From positions 32,001 through 96,000 of the IMG/VR virus record IMGVR_UViG_3300035498_000732: a stretch of DNA of 64,000 bases. The stretch is one strand, 5' to 3'. Shown here piece by piece: positions 78 through 62,946 of the stretch. Positions within the stretch are counted from its first letter, which is position 1; each line of letters starts with the position of its first letter. A model generated the notes under the pieces. It was not told the DNA's origin. It saw nothing but the letters and a program-made list of their open reading frames with translations, and did no database searches. Made by a program: the position numbers and the translations under genes. The DNA comes from a virus (Duplodnaviria; Caudoviricetes).

Positions 78-87
78 AAGTCTATTG

Positions 88-119
88 GAGCTCGCTGATT
101 ATGGCGAGCTTCTTTTTTA
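88..119 (+). terminator. Intrinsic terminator
   Basis: Stem gagctcgc / gcgagctt followed by a T tract. Confidence 0.75.
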
Positions 120-175
120 TCAGGGATTTTTTTTTTACATTTATATAATTATTAATAATTTGGAGGATAATAGTT

Positions 176-2907: not shown

Positions 2908-3015
2908 CAGTATCCTCCATATAATATATTATATTTGTAATTTATGGTAATACATATCAAGTCATATTAATATTATGTAAAAAAAAAAATATTTTCTCGC
3001 CCCTCTAATTACCTG

Positions 3016-3029
3016 AACATTGAGATAAT
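3016..3029 (+). promoter_or_regulatory. Phage late-type promoter AAC(A/T)-N6-TAAT (representative)
   Basis: Recurs at 13658, 23235, 26034, 39349, 44656, 55708, 56972, 58466, 59786 (+) and 17755, 22291, 39324, 62098 (-); TACA/CACA variants at 136, 42430 and 62704. Confidence 0.75.
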
Positions 3030-3053
3030 TATGCATGAAAGGAGACTTTTCAT

Positions 3054-9000: not shown

Positions 9001-12000
9001 TGAAGGGTGATGGACTTAATATTCCTGGATATGGGAATATAAGGCTGAGACCTGAATTTGGTGGTACACCTAGAAATAAAACTATTACTAGTCTTGATGG
9101 TACTTATGTATATGATGAGGAAAGCCATGAATATGAAGCTGCTGATGCAGAGACAAGAGCTGCTGATGCAAAGAAAGAAAAGTTAAAAGATTCTCTTATT
9201 TCTATTCCTGATAAGCTCAATAATGTTATTGATGCCCTTGGTGGAACAGAAGATGCTGATGACAAAGAGAAAGAGAGTAATGGATTCTTATCCAGTATTC
9301 TTTCTATGCTTGGATTAACAGGAGCATCTGGTATTGGAGCTACTATTCTTAAATTTGCTAGTAAAGGCATTGGATTTGCTATGACTTTACTTGGTCCAAT
9401 TGCTGCAGCTGCTTTGATGGGAACATTCTTCTCTGGTAAACTTGATGGAATAATTAATACTTTTAGCAGTACTATAGGATCATACATAATGAAATTGCTT
9501 GGAGCTGATGAAGATGTAGATACTATTAAGAGTAATATCAGTCAAAGTGGAGAGAATGGTGAAGATGGAGCATCAGATATAGTTAAGTATTCATTGACTA
9601 AGGATTTCCTGAAAGGTGGTAAACACTTTAAAGCATTTTTTAGAAAAGCAAATGAAAAGCTTGCAAATAATAAGTTATTTAGAAATGCAACAGTTCTTAC
9701 CAAAGGAACTAATTTTGTATCTAATGCTTATAATACTATAGCTAATAAATTATTTGGCGGGGCTAAGGATGCTGCAGAAACAGTTGTAGAAGATAGTTCA
9801 GAAAGTCTTTGGGGCAGTTTCTTAGAGCATAATGGCGATAATGCAGCTAGTGCAATAATGAATGAAGGGGATGATTTAGCTAGAGCTGCAGCAAGTGGAA
9901 ATAAAGAAGGTTTATTGAAGAAATTCACAGGATTATTTAAGAATAAGAATGTTGAAACAGCTGCAGAGAGTGGAGTTGAGAAAGCCGCAGAATCTTCAAT
10001 ATTGCAGAGTGCATTAAAGTCTTCTAAAGAGGCTGTGTCTAAGGTTCTTGCTGCTATTGCTGGACATCTTCCAGAAGGATTAAAGAATAATATAAGCAAA
10101 ATTAAAGATGCTATTGATAATCTTATAGAGACTCAGGCAAAGAAAAAGGCTGAGAAAGATGGAGTTGAAAATGCAGCAAAACTCATTCCTCTCGTAGGAA
10201 AAGTTGTTACTGTAGCATTCTTTGTAGCTGATTATCTTACAGGATACAATAAAGCATCTAGTATACTTGGAGTAGAGAATCCTACAGCATGTGAAAAGGT
10301 TATATCTGGACTCGTAAATGGTTTTCTTGGAATTGGCTTCTTTACATCATTAATTCCTTCAAAGTTATTCATTACGACTATGATTGATGTAATTGGCCCA
10401 TTACTTGGAATTGATAGTACTGAATTAAAGCAGAGACGTCAAGAATATGCCGACAAAGTGGAATCATATAATGAAGAGAATGGTACAAATTACTCTATAG
10501 AGCAATACAATTCTAGTGTAAATGGTGAGAAGGGATTCTTTGAAAAGACTATTAGCAATGTCAAGTCATTATTTAGTAGCAAAGCTAGAACTACTAGAGA
10601 TAGTATGCTGGATAGTGATGGCAATGTAGTAGCTGGAGCACTTGATAAGACTACTAAGAGATGGAAGAAATTCTGGCAGAAGAAGGTTGATAATGGAATG
10701 GATCAATCTTATGCAGAAGCTCTCTATAGAAATGAGATCTTACATGATTCTAGTATGTCATTGACAGATGATTATATTGCTGATCTTCAAGAAAAGATTC
10801 AGAAATATCAGCAGACTAGTGGATCTCAGCAGATTCCTGATATTACTGTGGATCTTAATGGACTTATTAGGCATAATAAAGCCAATGGCCAAAAAGGTGC
10901 TAATGTAAGTTATGGTGATACAACTACAGCAGATTATGTAGGTAATTATGCTTTAGGCGGTATCATAAAGAAAACTGGATTAGCAGCACTCTCTAAGGGA
11001 GAGATGGTAGTTGATAATGCTAAAGATGCTATAAGTGCTATTACTAGTAAATTATTTGGTGGACTTGGAAATGTAGATATCAGTGGATATGAGTCAGTTA
11101 CAGATCTTGGTACATTTATTTCTGATCTGATGAATCTTGATGTAAAGACAAATGGATGGGAAGAGTTCTGGAAAAAGGCAGATGCTGATGATGAAGATTC
11201 AGGTGCTTTAGCTCCAATCAAGAAACTGATTAAGAGATTAATTGCATCTATGGTAGCTCCTGTATTTGCCATGAATATGTCTATGAATAGTGTTGCTGGT
11301 ACATTTAGTAATACACTTGGTACATCTAATACCACAGATACTAGTGATCAAACTACCACTACAACAAGTAGTAGCAGTGGATCAAAGTCATTATTATCTA
11401 TGGCGGCTAGTGCTGCAAAAGGAGTATTATCTAAAGTATCTGGCGGCATTAAGAAATTCTTTGGTGGCGGAACTGGCAAAGAAGATTATGATTCAGAAGA
11501 TGGTACATTTATTTCACAGATAAGTGATAAGTATGCCAATCTTAGCTATGGCAATAGTACATTTGCTGATGAAGGATGTGCACCTGCTACAGCTGCAATG
11601 TTTTTGAATAATACCATGGGTAATCAATATGGAGCAAGCATTGAAGATGCTGCTAAATATGCTGTATCTGGTGGATACAAAGTAGACAATGATGGTACTA
11701 AGGATCAATTCTTTAAGGACTACTTTACTACTAAGGGTATTGATACTGAATCTATTCAAAATTCTAAAGGAATTTATGATAGTATTGCTGCTGGTAAGCC
11801 TACTGTATTACTTGGGCAAGATGCAAAGAATACATCAAAGAAGAAATCTCCATTTGGGAAAGATCCTCATTATGTACTTGCTACTGGAGTAGATGAGAAT
11901 GGTAATATTATTGTAAATGATCCTGAAGCTAAGAAAGGCGGTAAAGCTTATAATAAGAGTATATTAAATGGAGTTAAGAATGCTATAGCTCCAAAGAAAA

Positions 12001-21187: not shown

Positions 21188-22264
21188 TTATTTAATCCAT
21201 CTTAGCCTTGGCACATACGTAGTAGATGTCTTTGTAGGCTTCTCCATTTTAATATATGCACCACTAGCCCAAGTTCTATCAATACGCCCAGAATCATGAT
21301 TAAATGTAGACATAGTTTCACTGTTTGCATATTTTTCCATAAGCGTATTAAATTCATATATAATCAATGGATTCATATCTTCTATAAAAGCAGATTTCCA
21401 TTGTATAGATAAAGATAATCCAGCACTAGAAAAGTCTCCATTGCCAAATACACTTCTTGGAACTGATGTAGGATAGCACCCCCACAATTTGGCATAGTGA
21501 GCTATTGTCATCATGTCATCTAGGAGAGTAAATTTATATATAGCAATCTGGTCATGGAGTACTTTATTCTGTATATATCTAATATCAGGAGTTATTCTTC
21601 CTAATCTCTTTAGTCTCTCATATTCATCATATGCTTTAAAAAACATGTATATGTCAAGATGCCTAGTATCTTCAAACTCCAAAGAAAATGAAAATCCATC
21701 ATCTGATGCCTCTGAACTTCCTCTATATTCATAATTATTTCCATGCATATTTGAGGCAATATCAATATCTACCGAATTTATATCCGGTAGATCTAATGTA
21801 TCTTTTACTCTATTATGAAGAAGAGCTATAGTACCACCTTTATGAGATGACTGTAATGAATCTATTACCTCTGGATAATAATCCTTCAAGTTTACAAAGA
21901 ACTCTACATTCTCTAATTCACTTTGAAGATTATTATTGGTGCCATCCATTATATGAAGATCTGGTTTAGTGAAAAATAAAACCTCTTTCGTATTAGGCAT
22001 TCTATTATATGGATCATTATAACCAAACTTACTATATTTGGTATACATACCACTTTTAATAGTAGATGGTTTTAATAGTCCATGGGTTTCAAGCATAGAT
22101 GAATCTGAATTAGATATTTGATTAAAATTAGCTCCGGTAATTTGTCTATATAGAGTATTCTTAGATCTATTTAATCCATACTCTAGACTATTAGCTCCTA
22201 ATTTATCATGTTCATTATCAGAGCTTATATTAGTAATCTTACTTACTTTGCCTTTACTAGCCAT
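21188..22264 (-). CDS. Virion structural protein (tail tube/baseplate-like)
   Basis: AGGAGG RBS before ATG 22264; late promoter 22291-22304; FSLEFED..WGCYPTSVP pattern resembles tail-tube-fold proteins. Confidence 0.5.
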   Translation of the reverse strand: MASKGKVSKITNISSDNEHDKLGANSLEYGLNRSKNTLYRQITGANFNQISNSDSSMLETHGLLKPSTIKSGMYTKYSKFGYNDPYNRMPNTKEVLFFTKPDLHIMDGTNNNLQSELENVEFFVNLKDYYPEVIDSLQSSHKGGTIALLHNRVKDTLDLPDINSVDIDIASNMHGNNYEYRGSSEASDDGFSFSLEFEDTRHLDIYMFFKAYDEYERLKRLGRITPDIRYIQNKVLHDQIAIYKFTLLDDMMTIAHYAKLWGCYPTSVPRSVFGNGDFSSAGLSLSIQWKSAFIEDMNPLIIYEFNTLMEKYANSETMSTFNHDSGRIDRTWASGAYIKMEKPTKTSTTYVPRLRWIK

Positions 22265-22436
22265 GCCAGACTTCCTCCTTTCACGTAACAATTATTGATA
22301 AGTTCTGCTATTTAATAAGTCCTCGATTGCATATTATATCAGTAATAAATAAAGCCAATAATTGTGATTGAATCTATTAATTACCATTATTCAATAAAGC
22401 TAAATGAAGATTTAAAGAAAGGATGGAAATACAATT

Positions 22437-22709
22437 ATGATGAAGAATAGAACCAATAGAATTAATGGAGTACCAATGGCAGGATGTGCATCTGTCTTTG
22501 ATGATAGATTCATGAGAGAGAATTTTCCAAATTCTGTATCTAAAGAGGAACCAATGTGGGTTCCTTTTGAAGAGCATAGAAGACATATAGATTATTCTAG
22601 AATGGATATATATGATGGGTATATTGCAGATGTATTCCTTAATGGTAATTTCATTGGATCAATAGATAGTAAATCAGTATTAGAAGTTAAATGCAGAAGA
22701 AAAGTATAA
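22437..22709 (+). CDS. Small early protein, paralog 1
   Basis: Shares INGVPMAxCxxxxDDxFMxxNF with 22877..23167; duplicated promoter and leader. Confidence 0.7.
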   Translation: MMKNRTNRINGVPMAGCASVFDDRFMRENFPNSVSKEEPMWVPFEEHRRHIDYSRMDIYDGYIADVFLNGNFIGSIDSKSVLEVKCRRKV

Positions 22710-22876
22710 AAATATTTTTCAATTACTATTGGCTTTATTTTTTTCTTATCAAAATATATTTCAATTGCATATTATAATAATAGAATAAAGCCAGTAATTG
22801 TGATTGACCATCCCGCAATTAGTCGTCGCTCGTAAGAGCTAAACAAAGATTTTAAGAAAAGGATGGAAATGCAATT

Positions 22877-23167
22877 ATGATGAAAAAAGCACCGACAATT
22901 AATGGGGTACCAATGGCATGTTGTAGCCAAATTTGTGATGATGAATTTATGGAGATTAATTTTGGTAGTAAACCAAGGCGATCTAATACTAACTATAATT
23001 ATACTGAAGAAGTAATAACAAGTGTAGAAGACCTTGGAAGATCAGATGAATATCAATTAAAAGTACCATCAGGAGCTAAAGCTATGATATATGTAAATGG
23101 GTGTCCTGTGTTTGGGCCAATAATAGGAGAAGCACAGATATCTGTTATAGAAATTGAATATTATTAA
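22877..23167 (+). CDS. Small early protein, paralog 2
   Basis: Same N-terminal motif and leader as 22437..22709. Confidence 0.7.
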   Translation: MMKKAPTINGVPMACCSQICDDEFMEINFGSKPRRSNTNYNYTEEVITSVEDLGRSDEYQLKVPSGAKAMIYVNGCPVFGPIIGEAQISVIEIEYY

Positions 23168-23282
23168 TATTCAATCCCATTATTGGCTTTATTTTTTCTT
23201 ATAAATCTCTGAGAGCTTCACATATCAGTGCCACAACATTAAATTAATTTAATATGATTAAAATAAGGAGGATATAAATGCT

Positions 23283-24911
23283 ATGATTAATAGTGTAATT
23301 CACGAAACTATTCTTAGAGATATAGTAGATTTAGTTAGTGATGTGAAGGATGACTATGAAGCCGCAAGCGGGATACTGAAAGCATCAGGTGGAAATGCAT
23401 ATAGTTCTATCATGAAGGCTACATCAGATTTAGTATTAGTTTTTCCATTTCTATGTGACAGTACTGTAAGCATGGAAACAGCTAATATGACATCTAAAGC
23501 TATTGAACGCCAATGTGTAACAATGCTTAGGCTTCTTTTTTCTGCATGCCAGATTTCTGATTATAGTAATGGCAGGGAGTTTTTAGCTCAATTTCATAAT
23601 AATATTAAACCAGATACTCCTGGAGAAATGGATCTTGATGATTTTCTTACTATAATGGATAAATACACAGAGTCAGGGGATCTTATTATTAGAGATCGCA
23701 AGGCATATAATACCATTATGGAGCAGCTTCACAATATGTGTAATCAGGAACCACTTGCTGAAACTATAAATGAACAATCATTGTCTGATTTTAGTATATT
23801 AGAGAGAAATGGTAGTCTCAGTGTTCTTGGAGAAGCCAAGAATAATAATGACAGACGTAACAATAGAAATAGTGGTGGCAGCAGAAATAACGGTGGCAGA
23901 GGAACTAGATCTGATAAACCTAGATCTGGCCGAGGCAATGCTACATCTACTTTTGAATATGATGACGATGCATTTGAAAAAGCAATAGCATATGCATATG
24001 GAGATGAAGAAGATAGAGCTGCTCAGGATCTTGAAGATGCTATGAAATGGCGTAATAGCAAGGCCGGAAAGGCCAGTGTTACTAAAGATAAGAAATCTTC
24101 TATGGATAAGTATATACAAGGCCAAAAAATATCTAAAGTTCTGCAAGGTAAAGCTAAGGCTAATGTAAAAGTAAATGACAAAGATCTTATGGATCCGAAA
24201 GACCTTGCTCAGTTTTATAAAAATATGGCGGATGCTCAGAATAATATGATTCTTGATACAGATGCCAAGAAAGCTAATGAACTTCAGCCTTCATTGATGC
24301 TGATCAATTATACATATAAAAATGATCAGGGATATTATTGCCCTGCTCAATTTGTATGTGGAGTTAAATGCCGTCTTATTCCTGTTGATCCTGTAGATAT
24401 TGCTAATAGGATTTTAGTTAAGCATCAGGATAGAAATGTATTATTTAATTTTATTAGAGCTACTACAGGCGAGACTGCATTTGTAAAAGATTTCTTATTC
24501 GCTATTGATAGAGCAAAGATTGATGCTATGTCTAATTCCAGAACTGGATCTTCAAACAAGATGTGGAAGGTTCTTGAGCGTAGAGCAAATCTTTCTAAAT
24601 ACCGTCAGTATTTTACTAAGAGTAATGATTGTGCTATGATTACTACTCTTGGTATTTCTAAAGAATTAGCTGAATACATTAAGAAAGAAAATGGCATTGA
24701 TATGGAGAATCCTAAAGTTGCTGCCCAGATTATGGAAGGCTATAATCTTATGGGATTTATAGTTATTGATGAAGCTGTAGAAGTAAATAAGTTCTTATGG
24801 GATAATGGTGAAAGGTATTTTGAAACCATTACATTTAATAACTTGGAAAGGGAAAATTCTGGCGGTGAGTATAAGAAAGCTCTTAATCTCATGCAGAAGA
24901 TGTACAGGTAG
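23283..24911 (+). CDS. Putative virion head structural protein
   Basis: Late promoter 23235-23248, AGGAGG RBS, first gene of the head-protein block; low-complexity N/R/G insert. Confidence 0.55.
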   Translation: MINSVIHETILRDIVDLVSDVKDDYEAASGILKASGGNAYSSIMKATSDLVLVFPFLCDSTVSMETANMTSKAIERQCVTMLRLLFSACQISDYSNGREFLAQFHNNIKPDTPGEMDLDDFLTIMDKYTESGDLIIRDRKAYNTIMEQLHNMCNQEPLAETINEQSLSDFSILERNGSLSVLGEAKNNNDRRNNRNSGGSRNNGGRGTRSDKPRSGRGNATSTFEYDDDAFEKAIAYAYGDEEDRAAQDLEDAMKWRNSKAGKASVTKDKKSSMDKYIQGQKISKVLQGKAKANVKVNDKDLMDPKDLAQFYKNMADAQNNMILDTDAKKANELQPSLMLINYTYKNDQGYYCPAQFVCGVKCRLIPVDPVDIANRILVKHQDRNVLFNFIRATTGETAFVKDFLFAIDRAKIDAMSNSRTGSSNKMWKVLERRANLSKYRQYFTKSNDCAMITTLGISKELAEYIKKENGIDMENPKVAAQIMEGYNLMGFIVIDEAVEVNKFLWDNGERYFETITFNNLERENSGGEYKKALNLMQKMYR

Positions 24912-26009: not shown

Positions 26010-26127
26010 CTATCATGTATTCTTTTAAAAATAAACATAATAATAATTGGCAGCCTAGCATGGTTATAAGCCATGCTTGGCTACTAAATCCTAAAGTAAA
26101 ATATATTTTATAAGGAGGATATACATA

Positions 26128-27255
26128 ATGGTATATGGAAGTATTTATGGTGCTTCTAGATATGGCGTAAGTGAGGCTCAGTTCAATCCTGACTATGCTA
26201 TGCCTGATGGACCATCATTGGTGGTCGAAGAGTCTATTAAATTCGACCAGAATATGTTTGATGTTATTATTGAACGTGATTTTGTAGAGTGTGCTGCTAT
26301 GCAGGGCGCTATTAGCGAATCCACTCTTTATGCTATTGATGAAAGCTTTGTTTCTGACGTTTGGGGAAGAGTTAAAGAGTTTATTGCTAAGGTAAAAGAA
26401 AAGATCGTATCTATTGCTAAGGCTGCTGCATTGAGAGTAAATGCATTCTTTACAAAAGATGGATCTGCTCTTGTTGAGAAGTATGGCCGTCAGTTTGATG
26501 CTGCTGATGTATCTAAGCTTGAAATCAAGGGATGGAGAGAGAAGAAAGAAAGCGGAAGTGGCATTCTTGCTTCATTAGGAAATACAAGTGAACTTTCTGT
26601 AGTTAAATCATATGAAGGTGCTATTACTGTCAGCACACAGAAGGAAAAAGATAAATTTGAAAAGGAGCATGGTGTAGATAAGGTATTATCTACATATCTT
26701 GGTGGCAAGAAGACTACGTATGCTACATTCACAAAAGATGCAGAGTCTAAAGTATTTAAGGATCCAGCTACTGTAAAAGCAAGCAAGATTAGAAATACAA
26801 TCAAAGATATCGTTTCTGGTAATGGAAAGAGCATTAATGAAATTACTGAAATCAAAGATACAACTGAAAAAGCATATTCCACAGCAGAAGAAGATGCTCA
26901 GAAACAGATAGATAAAGCTAGAAGTGATACATATGAAGATGATGCAGATGCTGGCAATGGCGGCAAAGGCAAGACATCTCAGGAAAAACATGATGCAGCT
27001 GTATTCCAGGCAGAGTGTGCTAAGTTTGTCATTAGTGAAAACTCGAAGGCTGTTAGTAAAGTATTTTCCACATATCTTGATATCTTAAAACTTGATCTGA
27101 AGCAAGCAAGGAAGGCATTTATTACTATTGCTTCTAAGGGAGCAGGCAAGGTTACCGAGTCTACATTGCTTGAGGCTGTACTTGATGCTGATGAGTATGA
27201 AGTAGATTCATTCTTTGATCAGTACAGCTATGACTTTGAAGAACTTATTTCATAA
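26128..27255 (+). CDS. Internal head protein, paralog A
   Basis: Starts MVYGSIY; several xxE|S motifs in the first 75 aa, then amphipathic W..VKEFI.K; late promoter 26034-26047 and 5' hairpin. Confidence 0.6.
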   Translation: MVYGSIYGASRYGVSEAQFNPDYAMPDGPSLVVEESIKFDQNMFDVIIERDFVECAAMQGAISESTLYAIDESFVSDVWGRVKEFIAKVKEKIVSIAKAAALRVNAFFTKDGSALVEKYGRQFDAADVSKLEIKGWREKKESGSGILASLGNTSELSVVKSYEGAITVSTQKEKDKFEKEHGVDKVLSTYLGGKKTTYATFTKDAESKVFKDPATVKASKIRNTIKDIVSGNGKSINEITEIKDTTEKAYSTAEEDAQKQIDKARSDTYEDDADAGNGGKGKTSQEKHDAAVFQAECAKFVISENSKAVSKVFSTYLDILKLDLKQARKAFITIASKGAGKVTESTLLEAVLDADEYEVDSFFDQYSYDFEELIS

Positions 27256-31011: not shown

Positions 31012-32196
31012 TTATAGATTCTTGAAATCCACCATTAATCTTAGATATAAAGAAACTGTTGGTACAAAGTCTCCATCTTGTACTTGATATACTACTTGTT
31101 TTCTACTTAATACATATCTTCCGTCATATGCACTATTAGCCTTATAATTGCTAATCATGTATATCTTATTTGGAGTAAAATATCTTCCATTTACCAGATT
31201 TTTGGTTACAGATACAGTAGTATTATACTTCATCATTTTGAATTTAATTCTACTTGTCGAATCTTTAGTACGTACATATGATGTTCTTCCCGTATCACTA
31301 CTCAAAGTTACATCTACAGTATTACCTTTCTTATCTACTCCAACTACATCAGAGGTTTGCTTTGTCAATTTCTTATCTTTATCAAATGTACTATAATCTG
31401 CATCGCAATGCATAATATACATTCCACTACTACCATCAATATATAGTCCAGGAGTTGCAGTATCTGCATCAGTAGTATTATCTATATTAATCTTTACAGT
31501 AGAATAATCTCCACTACCATCAGGAACGTACACATCTTTCTCATTCAAAAAATAAGTGCAATTGAAATCATTAAAGAATCTATATCCATATAGATATATT
31601 GGATATAATTCATCTACATATTTTAAGTATTGAGATACTGTAGTAAGCGGAGGCATTATTGTGACTGGTAATTTTCTGGCAGCTATCTTATTTATACATA
31701 ACTTGCTAAAGTGTTTTAATCCCAAATATACAAGAGTACTCTTATTTATTTCAGAGTATATATTGTCTTTGAAATTCTTTCTATTCTTATTCAATATACC
31801 ATCATATACTAATCCTATTGTAACCCTGTTATATGCAGATTCACTACCATTACTTTCTGAGGCATCAGCAATCAAATCTTCATCAAAATCTACAGAGTTA
31901 GGCATAAAGTAAGTAAACTGTTGCTTTATATCTACTACACCACTAGGATTACTTTCATTCATATTATAATTCTTTATCTCAAGATATAATTTAGAATTAC
32001 TATCTTCTGCATGCTTGATCATATTATTATATACGCTAGTCCTAAGATTTGCTGTAAGATATATCAATGGCATATTATTATTGTCATAATCATAGTCTAA
32101 TAAGACATTAGATATAGACTCTGTTTCTATATCTGTTTCACTTCCTTCATATACCCATTTACATGCAATCTTTGCTTTATACTGTACATTAACCAT
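31012..32196 (-). CDS. Putative virion structural protein (baseplate hub-like)
   Basis: GAGGAGG RBS; beta-rich with DYDxNNMP, YxxGYRFF and FTPNK..GRY motifs; assignment tentative. Confidence 0.45.
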   Translation of the reverse strand: MVNVQYKAKIACKWVYEGSETDIETESISNVLLDYDYDNNNMPLIYLTANLRTSVYNNMIKHAEDSNSKLYLEIKNYNMNESNPSGVVDIKQQFTYFMPNSVDFDEDLIADASESNGSESAYNRVTIGLVYDGILNKNRKNFKDNIYSEINKSTLVYLGLKHFSKLCINKIAARKLPVTIMPPLTTVSQYLKYVDELYPIYLYGYRFFNDFNCTYFLNEKDVYVPDGSGDYSTVKINIDNTTDADTATPGLYIDGSSGMYIMHCDADYSTFDKDKKLTKQTSDVVGVDKKGNTVDVTLSSDTGRTSYVRTKDSTSRIKFKMMKYNTTVSVTKNLVNGRYFTPNKIYMISNYKANSAYDGRYVLSRKQVVYQVQDGDFVPTVSLYLRLMVDFKNL

Positions 32197-49799: not shown

Positions 49800-51807
49800 A
49801 TGGAAGAATGTGTTGATTTTAGAAACGGCCCACCATTTATAGCAGTCGATTCATGGATAATTGACAGAAAGGAGGACAATATTATTTGCTCCAGTAAAGG
49901 AGCACTTTTTGCACCTGTAACAAAGGTGCTTTATGGAGATGATGATCTAGACAATCCAGCAAATTGTTTCATCTTATCACCAAAGAAGTGTTATAACTCT
50001 GATGAGATGAGACCGCACATGTGTCTGTACATAAATTACTTTGAAAAGTTTTATGATACAGATAAAGAATATTTAACCGTGATGGCTAAGATTAAGTATT
50101 ATATTGATTACCAGCCATCATATACGAAAGAGATGTTTATAAATGACATTATCAGATATATTCTGACATCAGATATATTTGGTAAAGTCGGTACAATGGT
50201 GATGGATAATTACTTTATTCATTTGAAGTATAAAAACCCAAAGAATCCAGCACTAGAATATACGGATGATCATGCTAGAATTTTAATGCATATGAGTATA
50301 TTAATGAATCTATGTATTCCATTATTAACACATTTTGCTTATGTGAAGAAAGTGGAAAATGTAGATGAATTTTTACTAGAAGCGTTTGATAAGATATTTG
50401 AATTATTTGGCGTAGATATGTTTTCTAAGTTATATGAAACTTCCATAACCAATATCAAGGAGAAGGCAAGAAATGATGAAGAGTTATGGAATATGCAAGA
50501 CATCAGAGGCATTAATGTTATTACACATGCACAATCTGCTGTTAGAAATATAATTTTAAATCTAATGCCAAAATATGTATTCAGCGCTAATGTGGTTAGT
50601 CTTAACTTCGTGAGTATAAAAAATTGCACGAAATATACTATTGATATAGGATATGAATATAGTTTTATAAGTTTATCTTCATCAAGGAGGGATGAAGATA
50701 GTACCAGTGAGTTCGATTGGAGTACAGTCGCGCGTTGTCGTGAGGCAGCGTAGAAACCTCTCTTGGATATAGGAAATATATCCGTGCTGGGAAGTGCTAA
50801 AGCCTGATAGCCTATATGGAGACGAAAGTCAGAAACAAATATCGGGATGGTATATGAGGAAACTCTAAGTACTATAATAATGCGCAATCAGCAATGAAGC
50901 ATTACTATTATTAGTAATGAACGTTCAACGACTAGAAAAAGCTAAATATCTGCATTTGGAGAAATACCATAAATGGTGGTCAAGACTCAACCAATAAACC
51001 AGGCAGGTTGAAGATAAGCATATTCATTAGAGTATGTGAAGCGAGTATCGTTAGTGATTAAGTTCACGAAATGGGAGGCATCTCAGGTGTACGGTAACAG
51101 TATGCCTAAGATGAAGATATAGTCTCGTCATATAGGTAACACCTATAGTTAAGAAGACGAAGTACGAAGCGCAATTAGTTAAACAGAACGAATCTATGTA
51201 TATCCAGAATAAAGTAAATTCAGAGGCTACTATGCAATTGATAGAAACATTGTATGGACCCTTTGATCAAGATGAGATTGATTTCTATTTCCATGAACTT
51301 GGAGATTATGATGCTGTTATAAATAGCTTCCAGAAGAAATTGATTTTCAACTTGTTTTACAAATATTTTGGAAATACTGTTTCTGCTAATTCTATTAACA
51401 GAATAGATTATATTAAATTGATGATTGCAGCAAAAAGAATTCTGCAGTCTCAATGTTTAGTAATGCTACCTTATGTGATTAGCAGTAAGGTAGAAAAGTT
51501 AATCAGTCGTAAGTCTGTAAATCGTAAGGACCTTGTAAAGATTGAATCTTCTGAATTATTTCCACAAGTTTTACAGAAGTATCAAGAACCTGTATTTGAT
51601 CCTACAACACAAGATTCAGATAATGCTTTAGCATATAATGCTGAGAATAATAAAATCATTAAAGAGATTCTCAGTATGATAGCGACTGTATTAAGTAGTG
51701 ACTTTAAGATCATTGATTATAATGATCCAAAAATTAATGGCAAAACAATAGAAATAATTCCAGATATTATTATAGAGGAATTTTTAATCTATGTAATGCT
51801 GATATAA
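49800..51807 (+). CDS. Intron-split gene, join(49800..50717,51160..51807), 521 aa; putative sigma-like specificity subunit of non-virion RNAP
   Basis: Intron removal gives in-frame STSEFD|KYEAQLVKQNESMYIQ; early TATATTAT motif at 49757-49764; function inferred from size and position near the chaperonin, as recalled for AR9 gp226/gp228. Confidence 0.65.
50718..51159 (+). ncRNA. Group I self-splicing intron (IA-like), no homing endonuclease ORF
   Basis: P1 cgat|tg:cagtcg with U.G at the splice site; P tgctggga 50785; Q aatcagca 50886; R gttcaacgacta 50923; S aagatatagtc 51114; P9 hairpin 51131-51147; terminal G 51159. Confidence 0.93.
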
Positions 51808-62469: not shown

Positions 62470-62896
62470 AAAATTTATAACCCTGCTATTTCTAGCAGGG
62501 CTATGTTTTTCTTCAGCACGCCCACGCTAGGAGCAAGCATGAAGGAACATAGAAAAGTTTTCACTTTCTTATAAAAAATATTCGTTAATAAAAGTAATAA
62601 AAATATATCTACCATAGCTACCTAGCATAACTATGGCAGATATTTCAGGAGAAGTATAAATACCAAGATATCTATACGATGTACATTCTATGGAAAAATA
62701 TACATTATCTATATGTATTTATAATAAAAAAAAAAAATAGCACAAGCCCTCCAGGAGACTTGTGCTTGGAACATAGTGTAGTGCTTAGAAAGGCACAGGC
62801 ATCCTGGAATGCCCATAACAAGAGAGACTGCACCGGGTTTTGGGAGATCGATGCAGCCAATATTGAATTATGCAAAGATAGTTATTATCTTTACAT
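62470..62896 (-). ncRNA. Cluster of up to three putative small RNAs (~62726-62896, ~62598-62705, ~62470-62580)
   Basis: Minus-strand promoter motifs at 62901-62908 and 62704-62717; terminator stems at 62739-62766, 62605-62643 and 62481-62500 with G.U pairs favouring the minus strand. Confidence 0.55.
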
Positions 62897-62946
62897 GGTT
62901 ATAATATGCAATCACATAATTATGTTTTTACAAAAATAAAAATAAA

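Follow-up and report, generated by a model that had tools for sequence, protein, structure and literature searches.

Two small predicted early genes of an AR9/PBS1-like jumbo phage carry complementary ends that could close the whole transcript

The window analysed here (64,000 nt; bases 32001–96000 of a 126,688-bp IMG/VR virus record; 33.7% GC, record about half complete) derives from a distant, uncultured AR9/PBS1-like jumbo phage. Two small tandem genes, each with its own promoter-like box and T-run, occupy the gap between two divergent genes with virion structural PHROG matches. A search with the 542-aa protein encoded to the right of the gap recovered AR9, PBS1, BpSp and Internexus together with Staphylococcus and Fusobacterium jumbo phages (about 30% identity), and the gene order at the locus is that of AR9 (gp211, gp212, gap, gp213), whose record annotates an early promoter in the gap. 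Both flanking genes are syntenic with late AR9 virion genes, which bears out the placement of the pair between divergent late structural operons in a first-pass annotation of this DNA. The features of the locus are given below by window coordinates and strand.

21188–22291, minus strand: left neighbour of the units, virion structural PHROG match
22326–22744, plus strand: unit 1, comprising promoter-like box, 5′ arm, leader, ORF, 3′ arm and T-run
22326–22338, plus strand: unit 1 early promoter-like box ATTGCATATTATA, predicted start at about 22344, 6 nt past TATTAT as in the AR9 consensus
22347–22372, plus strand: unit 1 5′ arm, outer part A 22347–22360, inner part B 22364–22372
22384–22426, plus strand: unit 1 leader hairpin, anti-SD CCAUU (22384–22388) with SD GGAUGG (22421–22426), present in the minimum free energy (MFE) structure
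22437–22709, plus strand: unit 1 ORF, 90 aa
22719–22744, plus strand: unit 1 3′ arm, B′ 22719–22726, A′ 22727–22740, T-run 22738–22744
22764–23197, plus strand: unit 2, same order of parts as unit 1
22764–22776, plus strand: unit 2 early promoter-like box ATTGCATATTATA, predicted start at 22782 or 22783
22782–22807, plus strand: unit 2 5′ arm, A 22782–22796 including G22794 (G.U pair), B 22797–22807
22808–22866, plus strand: unit 2 leader hairpin, anti-SD CCAUCC (22808–22813) with SD GGAUGG (22861–22866)
22877–23167, plus strand: unit 2 ORF, 96 aa
23171–23197, plus strand: unit 2 3′ arm, B′ 23171–23178, A′ 23179–23195, T-run 23192–23197
23235–23246, plus strand: AR9-type late promoter-like motif AACA-N6-TA for the 542-aa virion gene, past the unit 2 T-run and bounding the early units
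23283–24911, plus strand: right neighbour of the units, 542-aa gene, virion structural PHROG match

The tandem units, arms, ORFs, downstream complements and T tracts all lie where the first-pass annotation had put them. The promoter boxes contain GCATATTAT at 22329 and 22767 and are followed, 8–9 nt further on, by AATAAAGCCA(A/G)TAATTGTGATTGA in each unit; the leaders are 93–95 nt long and carry GGATGG as SD. With starts placed at about 22344 and 22782 by analogy with AR9, the 5′ arms begin 0–4 nt after the predicted +1 positions. The 3′ arms read TCAATTAC followed by TATTGGCTTTATT in unit 1 (22719–22739) and TCAATCCCAT followed by TATTGGCTTTATT in unit 2 (23171–23193), begin 9 and 3 nt after the respective stop codons and run, through TATTGGCTTTATT, into T7 and T6. 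The stems had been described as 13 bp, a 3-nt bulge and 9 bp in unit 1 and as about 22 bp in unit 2; the outer stem and bulge of unit 1 are as described (13–14 bp, 3-nt bulge), with an inner part of 8 bp including one G.U, and the unit 2 helix consists of 15 bp with one G.U and a weaker inner part, about 22 bp in total. A terminator scan of 22200–23320 detected no local terminator-like hairpin on either strand, in agreement with the earlier description, while ordinary GC hairpin plus T-run terminators are used by the phage elsewhere in the genome.

The AR9 early promoter consensus is AAATATATATTAT-N6-G(+1) and the late consensus AACA-N6-TA/G (PMC5312081). The window boxes, GATTGCATATTAT, match the early consensus at 9 of 13 positions, with A instead of G at +1, and the CATATTAT variant is also found in the syntenic promoters of BpSp and of two further relatives (L037 and L062). 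Only three copies of the box were counted, the third being a minus-strand copy at 62722–62912. The start sites assigned to the window are predictions from the AR9 consensus, and the experimental data that bear on them are those published for AR9, in which a start lies at the predicted position and the downstream gene has no early expression. The primary early start at 181724, exactly 6 nt after the box, was assigned to g214 with a 340-nt UTR (Table S2, PMC5312081) and a late start site was mapped at 182012 (Table S3, PMC5312081), with g214 FPKM values of 0.69, 20.7 and 1427 at 5, 20 and 40 min (Table S4, PMC5312081) against 20–1300 for AR9 early genes at 5 min (PMC5312081). Because g214 is essentially silent at 5 min (FPKM 0.69), AR9 early RNA appears to stop before g214, an indirect sign of release at the U-run, and the 181724 unit looks like a separate small early gene. 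Between this start and g214 lie T-runs and a conserved ORF of 15 aa (14 aa in BpSp); the ORF is unannotated and encodes MFKALRTVLSIIGLQ in AR9 (L009, NC_031039; 4047–4330, corresponding to 181705–181990 of the record) and MFKLVRIIVSLING in BpSp. The late motif of the window occupies the relative position of the mapped AR9 late g214 start, and many relatives likewise have AACA-N6-TA between their T-run and gp213 homologue. The label 'early' is supported, in that the box resembles the AR9 virion RNA polymerase consensus and is syntenic with an experimentally mapped early start.

The two encoded proteins are 37% identical overall, and the shared block INGVPMAxC..DDxFM..NF is as first reported. 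Close relatives of both came only from metagenomes (P0002–P0006 and P0008), with P0005 as the closest homologue of the unit 1 protein and P0002, P0003, P0004 and P0008 as homologues of the unit 2 protein at 63–75% identity. Searches of contigs from viruses, metagenomes and genomes, made with the proteins, their alignment or a DNA pattern, gave no match, nor did blastn against phage records, and neither protein had a Pfam or PHROG match. ESM Atlas scores for the mini-proteins were below 0.85 and the AlphaFold model of the unit 2 protein was of low confidence (pLDDT 64). At 90 and 96 aa, with a maximum 15-residue Kyte-Doolittle mean of 1.0–1.5, neither has a transmembrane-like stretch. ORFs at the same slot across relatives span 30–123 aa, are mutually unrelated except for close pairs and fall into no PHROG family. 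The host-takeover or anti-defence role proposed for such ORFs is a guess.

Membership of a type I toxin system, with which the units had been compared, is not supported, since the proteins (90–96 aa) are not hydrophobic and no antisense RNA was seen. No antisense promoter or terminator stands out, minus-strand sigma-70-like matches being at chance level and a minus-strand terminator being absent; a phage-type antisense promoter is possible.

Both the MFE and the centroid structures of the two transcripts (RNAfold) contain the closing helix, with fold energies at z = −5.25 (unit 1) and −3.32 (unit 2) relative to shuffles, MFE predictions on AU-rich 400-nt RNAs being error-prone. Energies of the arm duplexes, which end in or at T7 and T6, are −24.6 and −26.1 kcal/mol. 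Outer arm A is mostly unpaired in simulated nascent RNAs (0.54–0.88; unit 1 0.68–0.88), and once A′ has been made the A:A′ pairing probability is 0.79 in unit 1 and 0.80 in unit 2. Inner arm B pairs instead with the start-codon region (22871–22881) in the MFE structure of unit 2. The loop closed by the helix is about 370 nt, as against the short loop of a local stem-loop terminator.

Of random pairs of fixed 30-nt windows drawn from this genome, 0.015% share a contiguous Watson–Crick run of at least 13, and a chance origin of the arm pairing can be excluded. Exact 13–14-nt inverted repeats within 2 kb are not rare genome-wide (about 14 expected, Markov control), and the significance of the arm pair rests on position, extension and conservation, not on the rarity of a 13–14-mer; duplex energy between wide windows of 100 × 60 nt was not discriminating. 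No other gene of the contig is similarly bracketed.

Alignment of unit 1 with unit 2 shows that conservation is concentrated at the ends and the ribosome-binding site (RBS): the promoter is identical at 15 of 16 positions, the 5′ arm at 23 of 24 (22348–22371 vs 22784–22807), the RBS region at about 90% and the 3′ arm plus T-run at 17 of 17, with the arm-to-RBS stretch and the bulk of the CDS at near-random identity. The 5′ side of inner arm B is 100% conserved, whereas its 3′ side has decayed. Both paralogue lineages occur separately in metagenomes (P0005 unit-1-like; P0003, P0004 and P0008 unit-2-like), which indicates that the duplication is old and that the arms were kept constant by selection or gene conversion.

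Alignment of homologues of the 542-aa protein allowed 52 IMG/VR loci to be retrieved from genomes of up to 285 kb, with about 32 distinct syntenic gaps, most of which contain a similarly built unit whose arm sequences differ. In most relatives the gap is 420–630 nt, with TATATATTAT-N6-G close to the left border and a T-run close to the right one, and the layout is regular (ORF start at +94 to +167, stop 26–72 nt before the 3′ end). When candidate units were folded from start to T-run, 15 of 26 had 11 or more of the 14 nt preceding the T-run paired with the first 35 nt, a level reached by 2% of 400 control T-runs from the same loci, and none of the 15 end-paired units has a local hairpin. An inverted-repeat scan adds about ten variant-promoter units (L014, L030, L034, L043, L046, L047, L048, L049, L052 and L054). 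The closing helix is only 10–16 bp in most relatives, and its arm sequences vary by lineage (for example GAAAAGACUUG.., AAAUAAAGGUCUAA, GACCUAUGGAUAUU and AAUAGACAAAUGUAUCUAUU). Gaps of 1.0–2.0 kb in L037 (3592–4982), L056 (3939–5000), L021 and L062 contain multiple early units, some of the extra ones not panhandles; the occurrence of at least two units in several relatives indicates that tandem expansion of the slot is recurrent.

Cognate arm duplexes of 17 units averaged −19.9 kcal/mol against −7.8 ± 3.6 kcal/mol for non-cognate combinations, and the cognate arm was the best partner for 15 of the 17 5′ arms (the two exceptions being close relatives of each other), in a set of phylogenetically non-independent units with about a dozen distinct arm sequences. 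Covariation is family-wide: complementarity is kept across the slot with differing arms, whereas the window pair alone has nearly none (one A-to-G change). It is drawn from non-homologous units at the syntenic slot of distant relatives, not from orthologues of the AATAAAGCCA arms themselves. Juxtapositions inside the helices comprised 10 G.U and 2 A.C, an excess that favours selection on the plus-strand RNA over selection on the DNA and strengthens an argument first made from the two G.U pairs of the window. With this covariation, the 10:2 ratio and the location of the arms at the predicted start and the U-run, the proposal of whole-transcript 5′–3′ closure at the RNA level is supported, and the long-range helix is very probably a selected feature of the RNA.

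Predicted RBS access is 0.62 in unit 1 (weak occlusion) and 0.26 in unit 2, which ranks 13th among 132 genes. The RBS is occluded across the family, with an access of 0.31 in the units versus 0.47 in 70 neighbouring genes (p = 1.9e-4), and the leaders of relatives' units contain pyrimidine-rich anti-SD segments. In silico removal of the first 25 nt raised RBS access in L031, L036, L056 and unit 2, while removal of the 3′ arm left it unchanged in most units, so that the suggested activation of these mRNAs by 3′ processing is not supported. Since only some units show altered RBS access when either arm is removed, closure and restraint of translation may be two separate properties.

Our best reading, to which we assign a probability of roughly 60%, is that each unit is expressed as a self-closing, self-terminating monocistronic early mRNA of an AR9-like jumbo phage, as described for aapA1. 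Transcription, probably carried out by the injected virion RNA polymerase, would start about 6 nt past CATATTAT, and the 5′ arm (the first 15–25 nt) would remain single-stranded during synthesis of the leader, the ORF and a post-stop spacer of about 10–15 nt. The 3′ arm would emerge just before the U-run, at which point the two ends would anneal into a helix of 13–22 bp that occupies the place of a terminator stem, making the whole mRNA the 'loop' of its own intrinsic terminator. Termination at the U-run would prevent early transcription from entering the late virion operon 40–90 nt downstream, and the released RNA would be a closed panhandle in which pairing of both ends gives protection from 5′- and 3′-dependent RNases. 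In the leader hairpin, stacked on the closing helix, an anti-SD (in many relatives together with an anti-start) would pair with the RBS, so that translation would be restrained. The helix would be the cause both of termination and of RNA stabilisation, and the panhandle would provide end protection and translational restraint; any role of the proteins is putative.

The traits of the helix (10–22 bp, −11 to −27 kcal/mol, at a U-run and upstream of a late promoter) fit those of an intrinsic-terminator stem, given that it abuts the U-run, that no other terminator is present and that the late promoter lies just downstream. The reading requires the stem around a 370-nt loop to form during the pause at the U-run, which is kinetically plausible but counts as a reservation. 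Yarnell and Roberts reportedly found in 1999 that an oligonucleotide annealed to the downstream arm can stand in for the hairpin. A 'terminator whose loop is an entire gene', one of the options raised in the first-pass annotation, has a published precedent in the aapA1 mRNA, in which an 11-bp 5′–3′ helix was reported to cause efficient transcription termination (PMC5416894). A promoter-specific terminator bypassed by late transcripts was also considered and dropped, because the AACA-N6-TA motif lies downstream of the U-run.

Comparison with known systems places the units close to several of them. Like intrinsic terminators, they have a stem of 10–22 bp and about −11 to −27 kcal/mol directly before a U-run, A-rich sequence on the 5′ side that pairs with the U-run, and a placement suited to insulating a downstream operon. 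In contrast to such terminators, the loop is the whole mRNA (300–480 nt rather than 3–8 nt), and the 5′ end of the transcript supplies the upstream half of the stem. With aapA1/IsoA1 of Helicobacter pylori and with hok/Sok they have in common, by prediction, a full-length mRNA that is locked where its two ends pair; in those systems the SD is also sequestered and the RNA compact and stable (PMC5416894). In contrast to those genes, the slot encodes soluble-looking ORFans of 45–123 aa (90 and 96 aa in the window) and not membrane peptides of 30–50 aa, the genes are phage early genes that are apparently read by the virion RNA polymerase and have no detectable antisense RNA, and the SD is not part of the closing helix; deleting the 3′ arm in silico leaves the RBS unfreed. 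The AR9 181724 unit (Lavysh et al. 2017, PMC5312081) matches the window units in syntenic slot and promoter class, and it too has a leader that is long and structured, a small ORF, and T-runs before an AACA-N6-TA late promoter; it differs in that its ORF is only 15 aa, that a local hairpin stands 16 nt before the T-run and that the segment abutting the T-run pairs with the leader at about +11 to +21 (MFE), not at +1. In AR9 and BpSp alike, a local hairpin precedes a 16-nt spacer with long-range pairing to the leader; two competing long-range pairings are possible in this variant, a point against the proposed reading.

It is also conceivable, and in our view unlikely, that the closing helix acts only post-transcriptionally, as an end protection or translation lock in the manner of hok and aapA1, the 3′ end arising through processing or from a different signal, with later opening of the RNA by a nuclease to activate translation. 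The 5′–3′ locked, inert aapA1 and hok mRNAs offer a known model for this, and both the family-wide RBS occlusion and the gain in RBS access on removal of the first 25 nt (L031, L036, L056 and unit 2) agree with it. However, the 3′ arm abuts or enters the U-run in essentially every unit and there is no other terminator before the late promoter, the predicted RBS stays closed after removal of the 3′ arm and an antisense partner is not evident. Processing stems that bracket genes are classical in rrn operons. The parallel suggests that the terminal duplex could be an RNase III site like the stems of rRNA precursors, its cleavage trimming or destroying the early mRNA at a set time; the roughly 22 bp of units 1 and 2 equal the minimal RNase III length, but the 10–16-bp helix of most relatives is too short and typical of terminator stems, and we regard this explanation as highly unlikely.

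An origin of the arms as DNA-level repeats is more doubtful still. They might be MITE-like cassette ends, recombination or inversion sites, or ORFan-shuffling modules like the PeSL cassettes of T4-type phages (PMC2839356), given that unrelated ORFans occupy the same slot in different phages and that A′ of unit 1 and A of unit 2 form a local inverted repeat (I3) bracketing promoter 2. The MITE alternative named in the first-pass annotation is not upheld, as there are no target-site duplications at the flanks and the arms are unique, with no further copies in 126.7 kb. Moreover, the arms covary, unlike a conserved recombinase site, the G.U:A.C ratio of 10:2 favours plus-strand RNA, the arms of single-unit relatives surround the gene and not the promoter, and in the window the leftmost promoter lacks an upstream A′ and the rightmost A′ a downstream A. 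PeSL cassettes likewise have conserved regulatory ends around fast-changing ORFans in tandem units, but consist of local GC hairpins by sigma-70 promoters, many per genome, that act through DNA recombination (PMC2839356), whereas the pairing partners here lie at opposite ends of a gene, at one locus only, and covary. A PeSL cassette was rejected as an identification of the units, with only three promoter-box copies and stems that are long-range and locus-specific. That the arms are two opposed copies of a protein-binding site, such as an operator for early-gene shut-off, is scarcely credible: both arms are conserved in sequence and not just in complementarity between the window units, but across relatives the sequences are wholly different with complementarity kept, and the 3′ copies keep only the A half.

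No description of panhandle early transcripts in phages was found in the literature searched, the coverage of which was incomplete. If the 5′ end does serve as the upstream half of the terminator, correct initiation, termination, end protection and translational restraint would be coupled in one helix. The design is conserved in a large clade of giant phages, its locus lying between two operons of late virion genes. A principle known from aapA1 and hok, toxin genes of chromosomes and plasmids, would then apply to phage early genes as well, here apparently read by a virion RNA polymerase, and the '340-nt 5′ UTR' of AR9 would be re-annotated as a separate small gene. For AR9/PBS1-like jumbo phages in general, laboratory phages included, we propose tentatively, at slightly less than even odds, that one slot is given over to a 'self-sealing', RNase-resistant, translationally restrained early mRNA, whose 5′ end completes its own terminator, with a fast-replaced ORFan, possibly an arms-race effector needing delayed or dosed synthesis. 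Such a regulatory device would be so far undescribed for phage early genes. This fast-evolving ORFan slot is worth screening for host-takeover or anti-defence activity, and the idea is open to laboratory testing, the hosts of AR9 and PBS1 being B. subtilis.

Several other features of the genome were observed. On the minus strand at 62722–62912, the third copy of the promoter box (gATTGCATATTATA) precedes about 170 nt of GC-rich sequence without a convincing ORF, which ends in a canonical hairpin plus T12; the element is a candidate early phage small RNA with no Rfam match. Its RNA contains UUCAAUAUUGGCU, which resembles the 3′ arms of the mini-genes, and competition of this RNA for the 5′ arms was rejected because the predicted pairing is not above background. 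An Rfam scan of the whole window at gathering thresholds gave no match, and a 442-nt, GC-richer gap free of ORFs lies at 50754–51195. A 91-nt tRNA-Ile(tat) called by ARAGORN at 26114–26204 (plus strand) overlaps the start of a 375-aa ORF at 26128 and is likely to be a false call. An element of about 110 nt that resembles a leader occurs four times in the contig, beyond the window or at its edge (10800–10950, 11331–11422, 31450–31600 and 104543–104640), with a TATAAT-like box, ggataagtaa..gcttatctaaa and ggggatca.aatgatc hairpins and the end cgcccttggagaaa, and may be a repeated promoter with a structured 5′ leader. Upstream of several genes, a T10–12 run followed by an ACAT..TATAAT-like box was found at window positions 78–175, 1580–1711 and 2908–3053 and at contig positions 121569–121770 and 122648–122915, a pattern that may represent a separate promoter class with an upstream T-tract.
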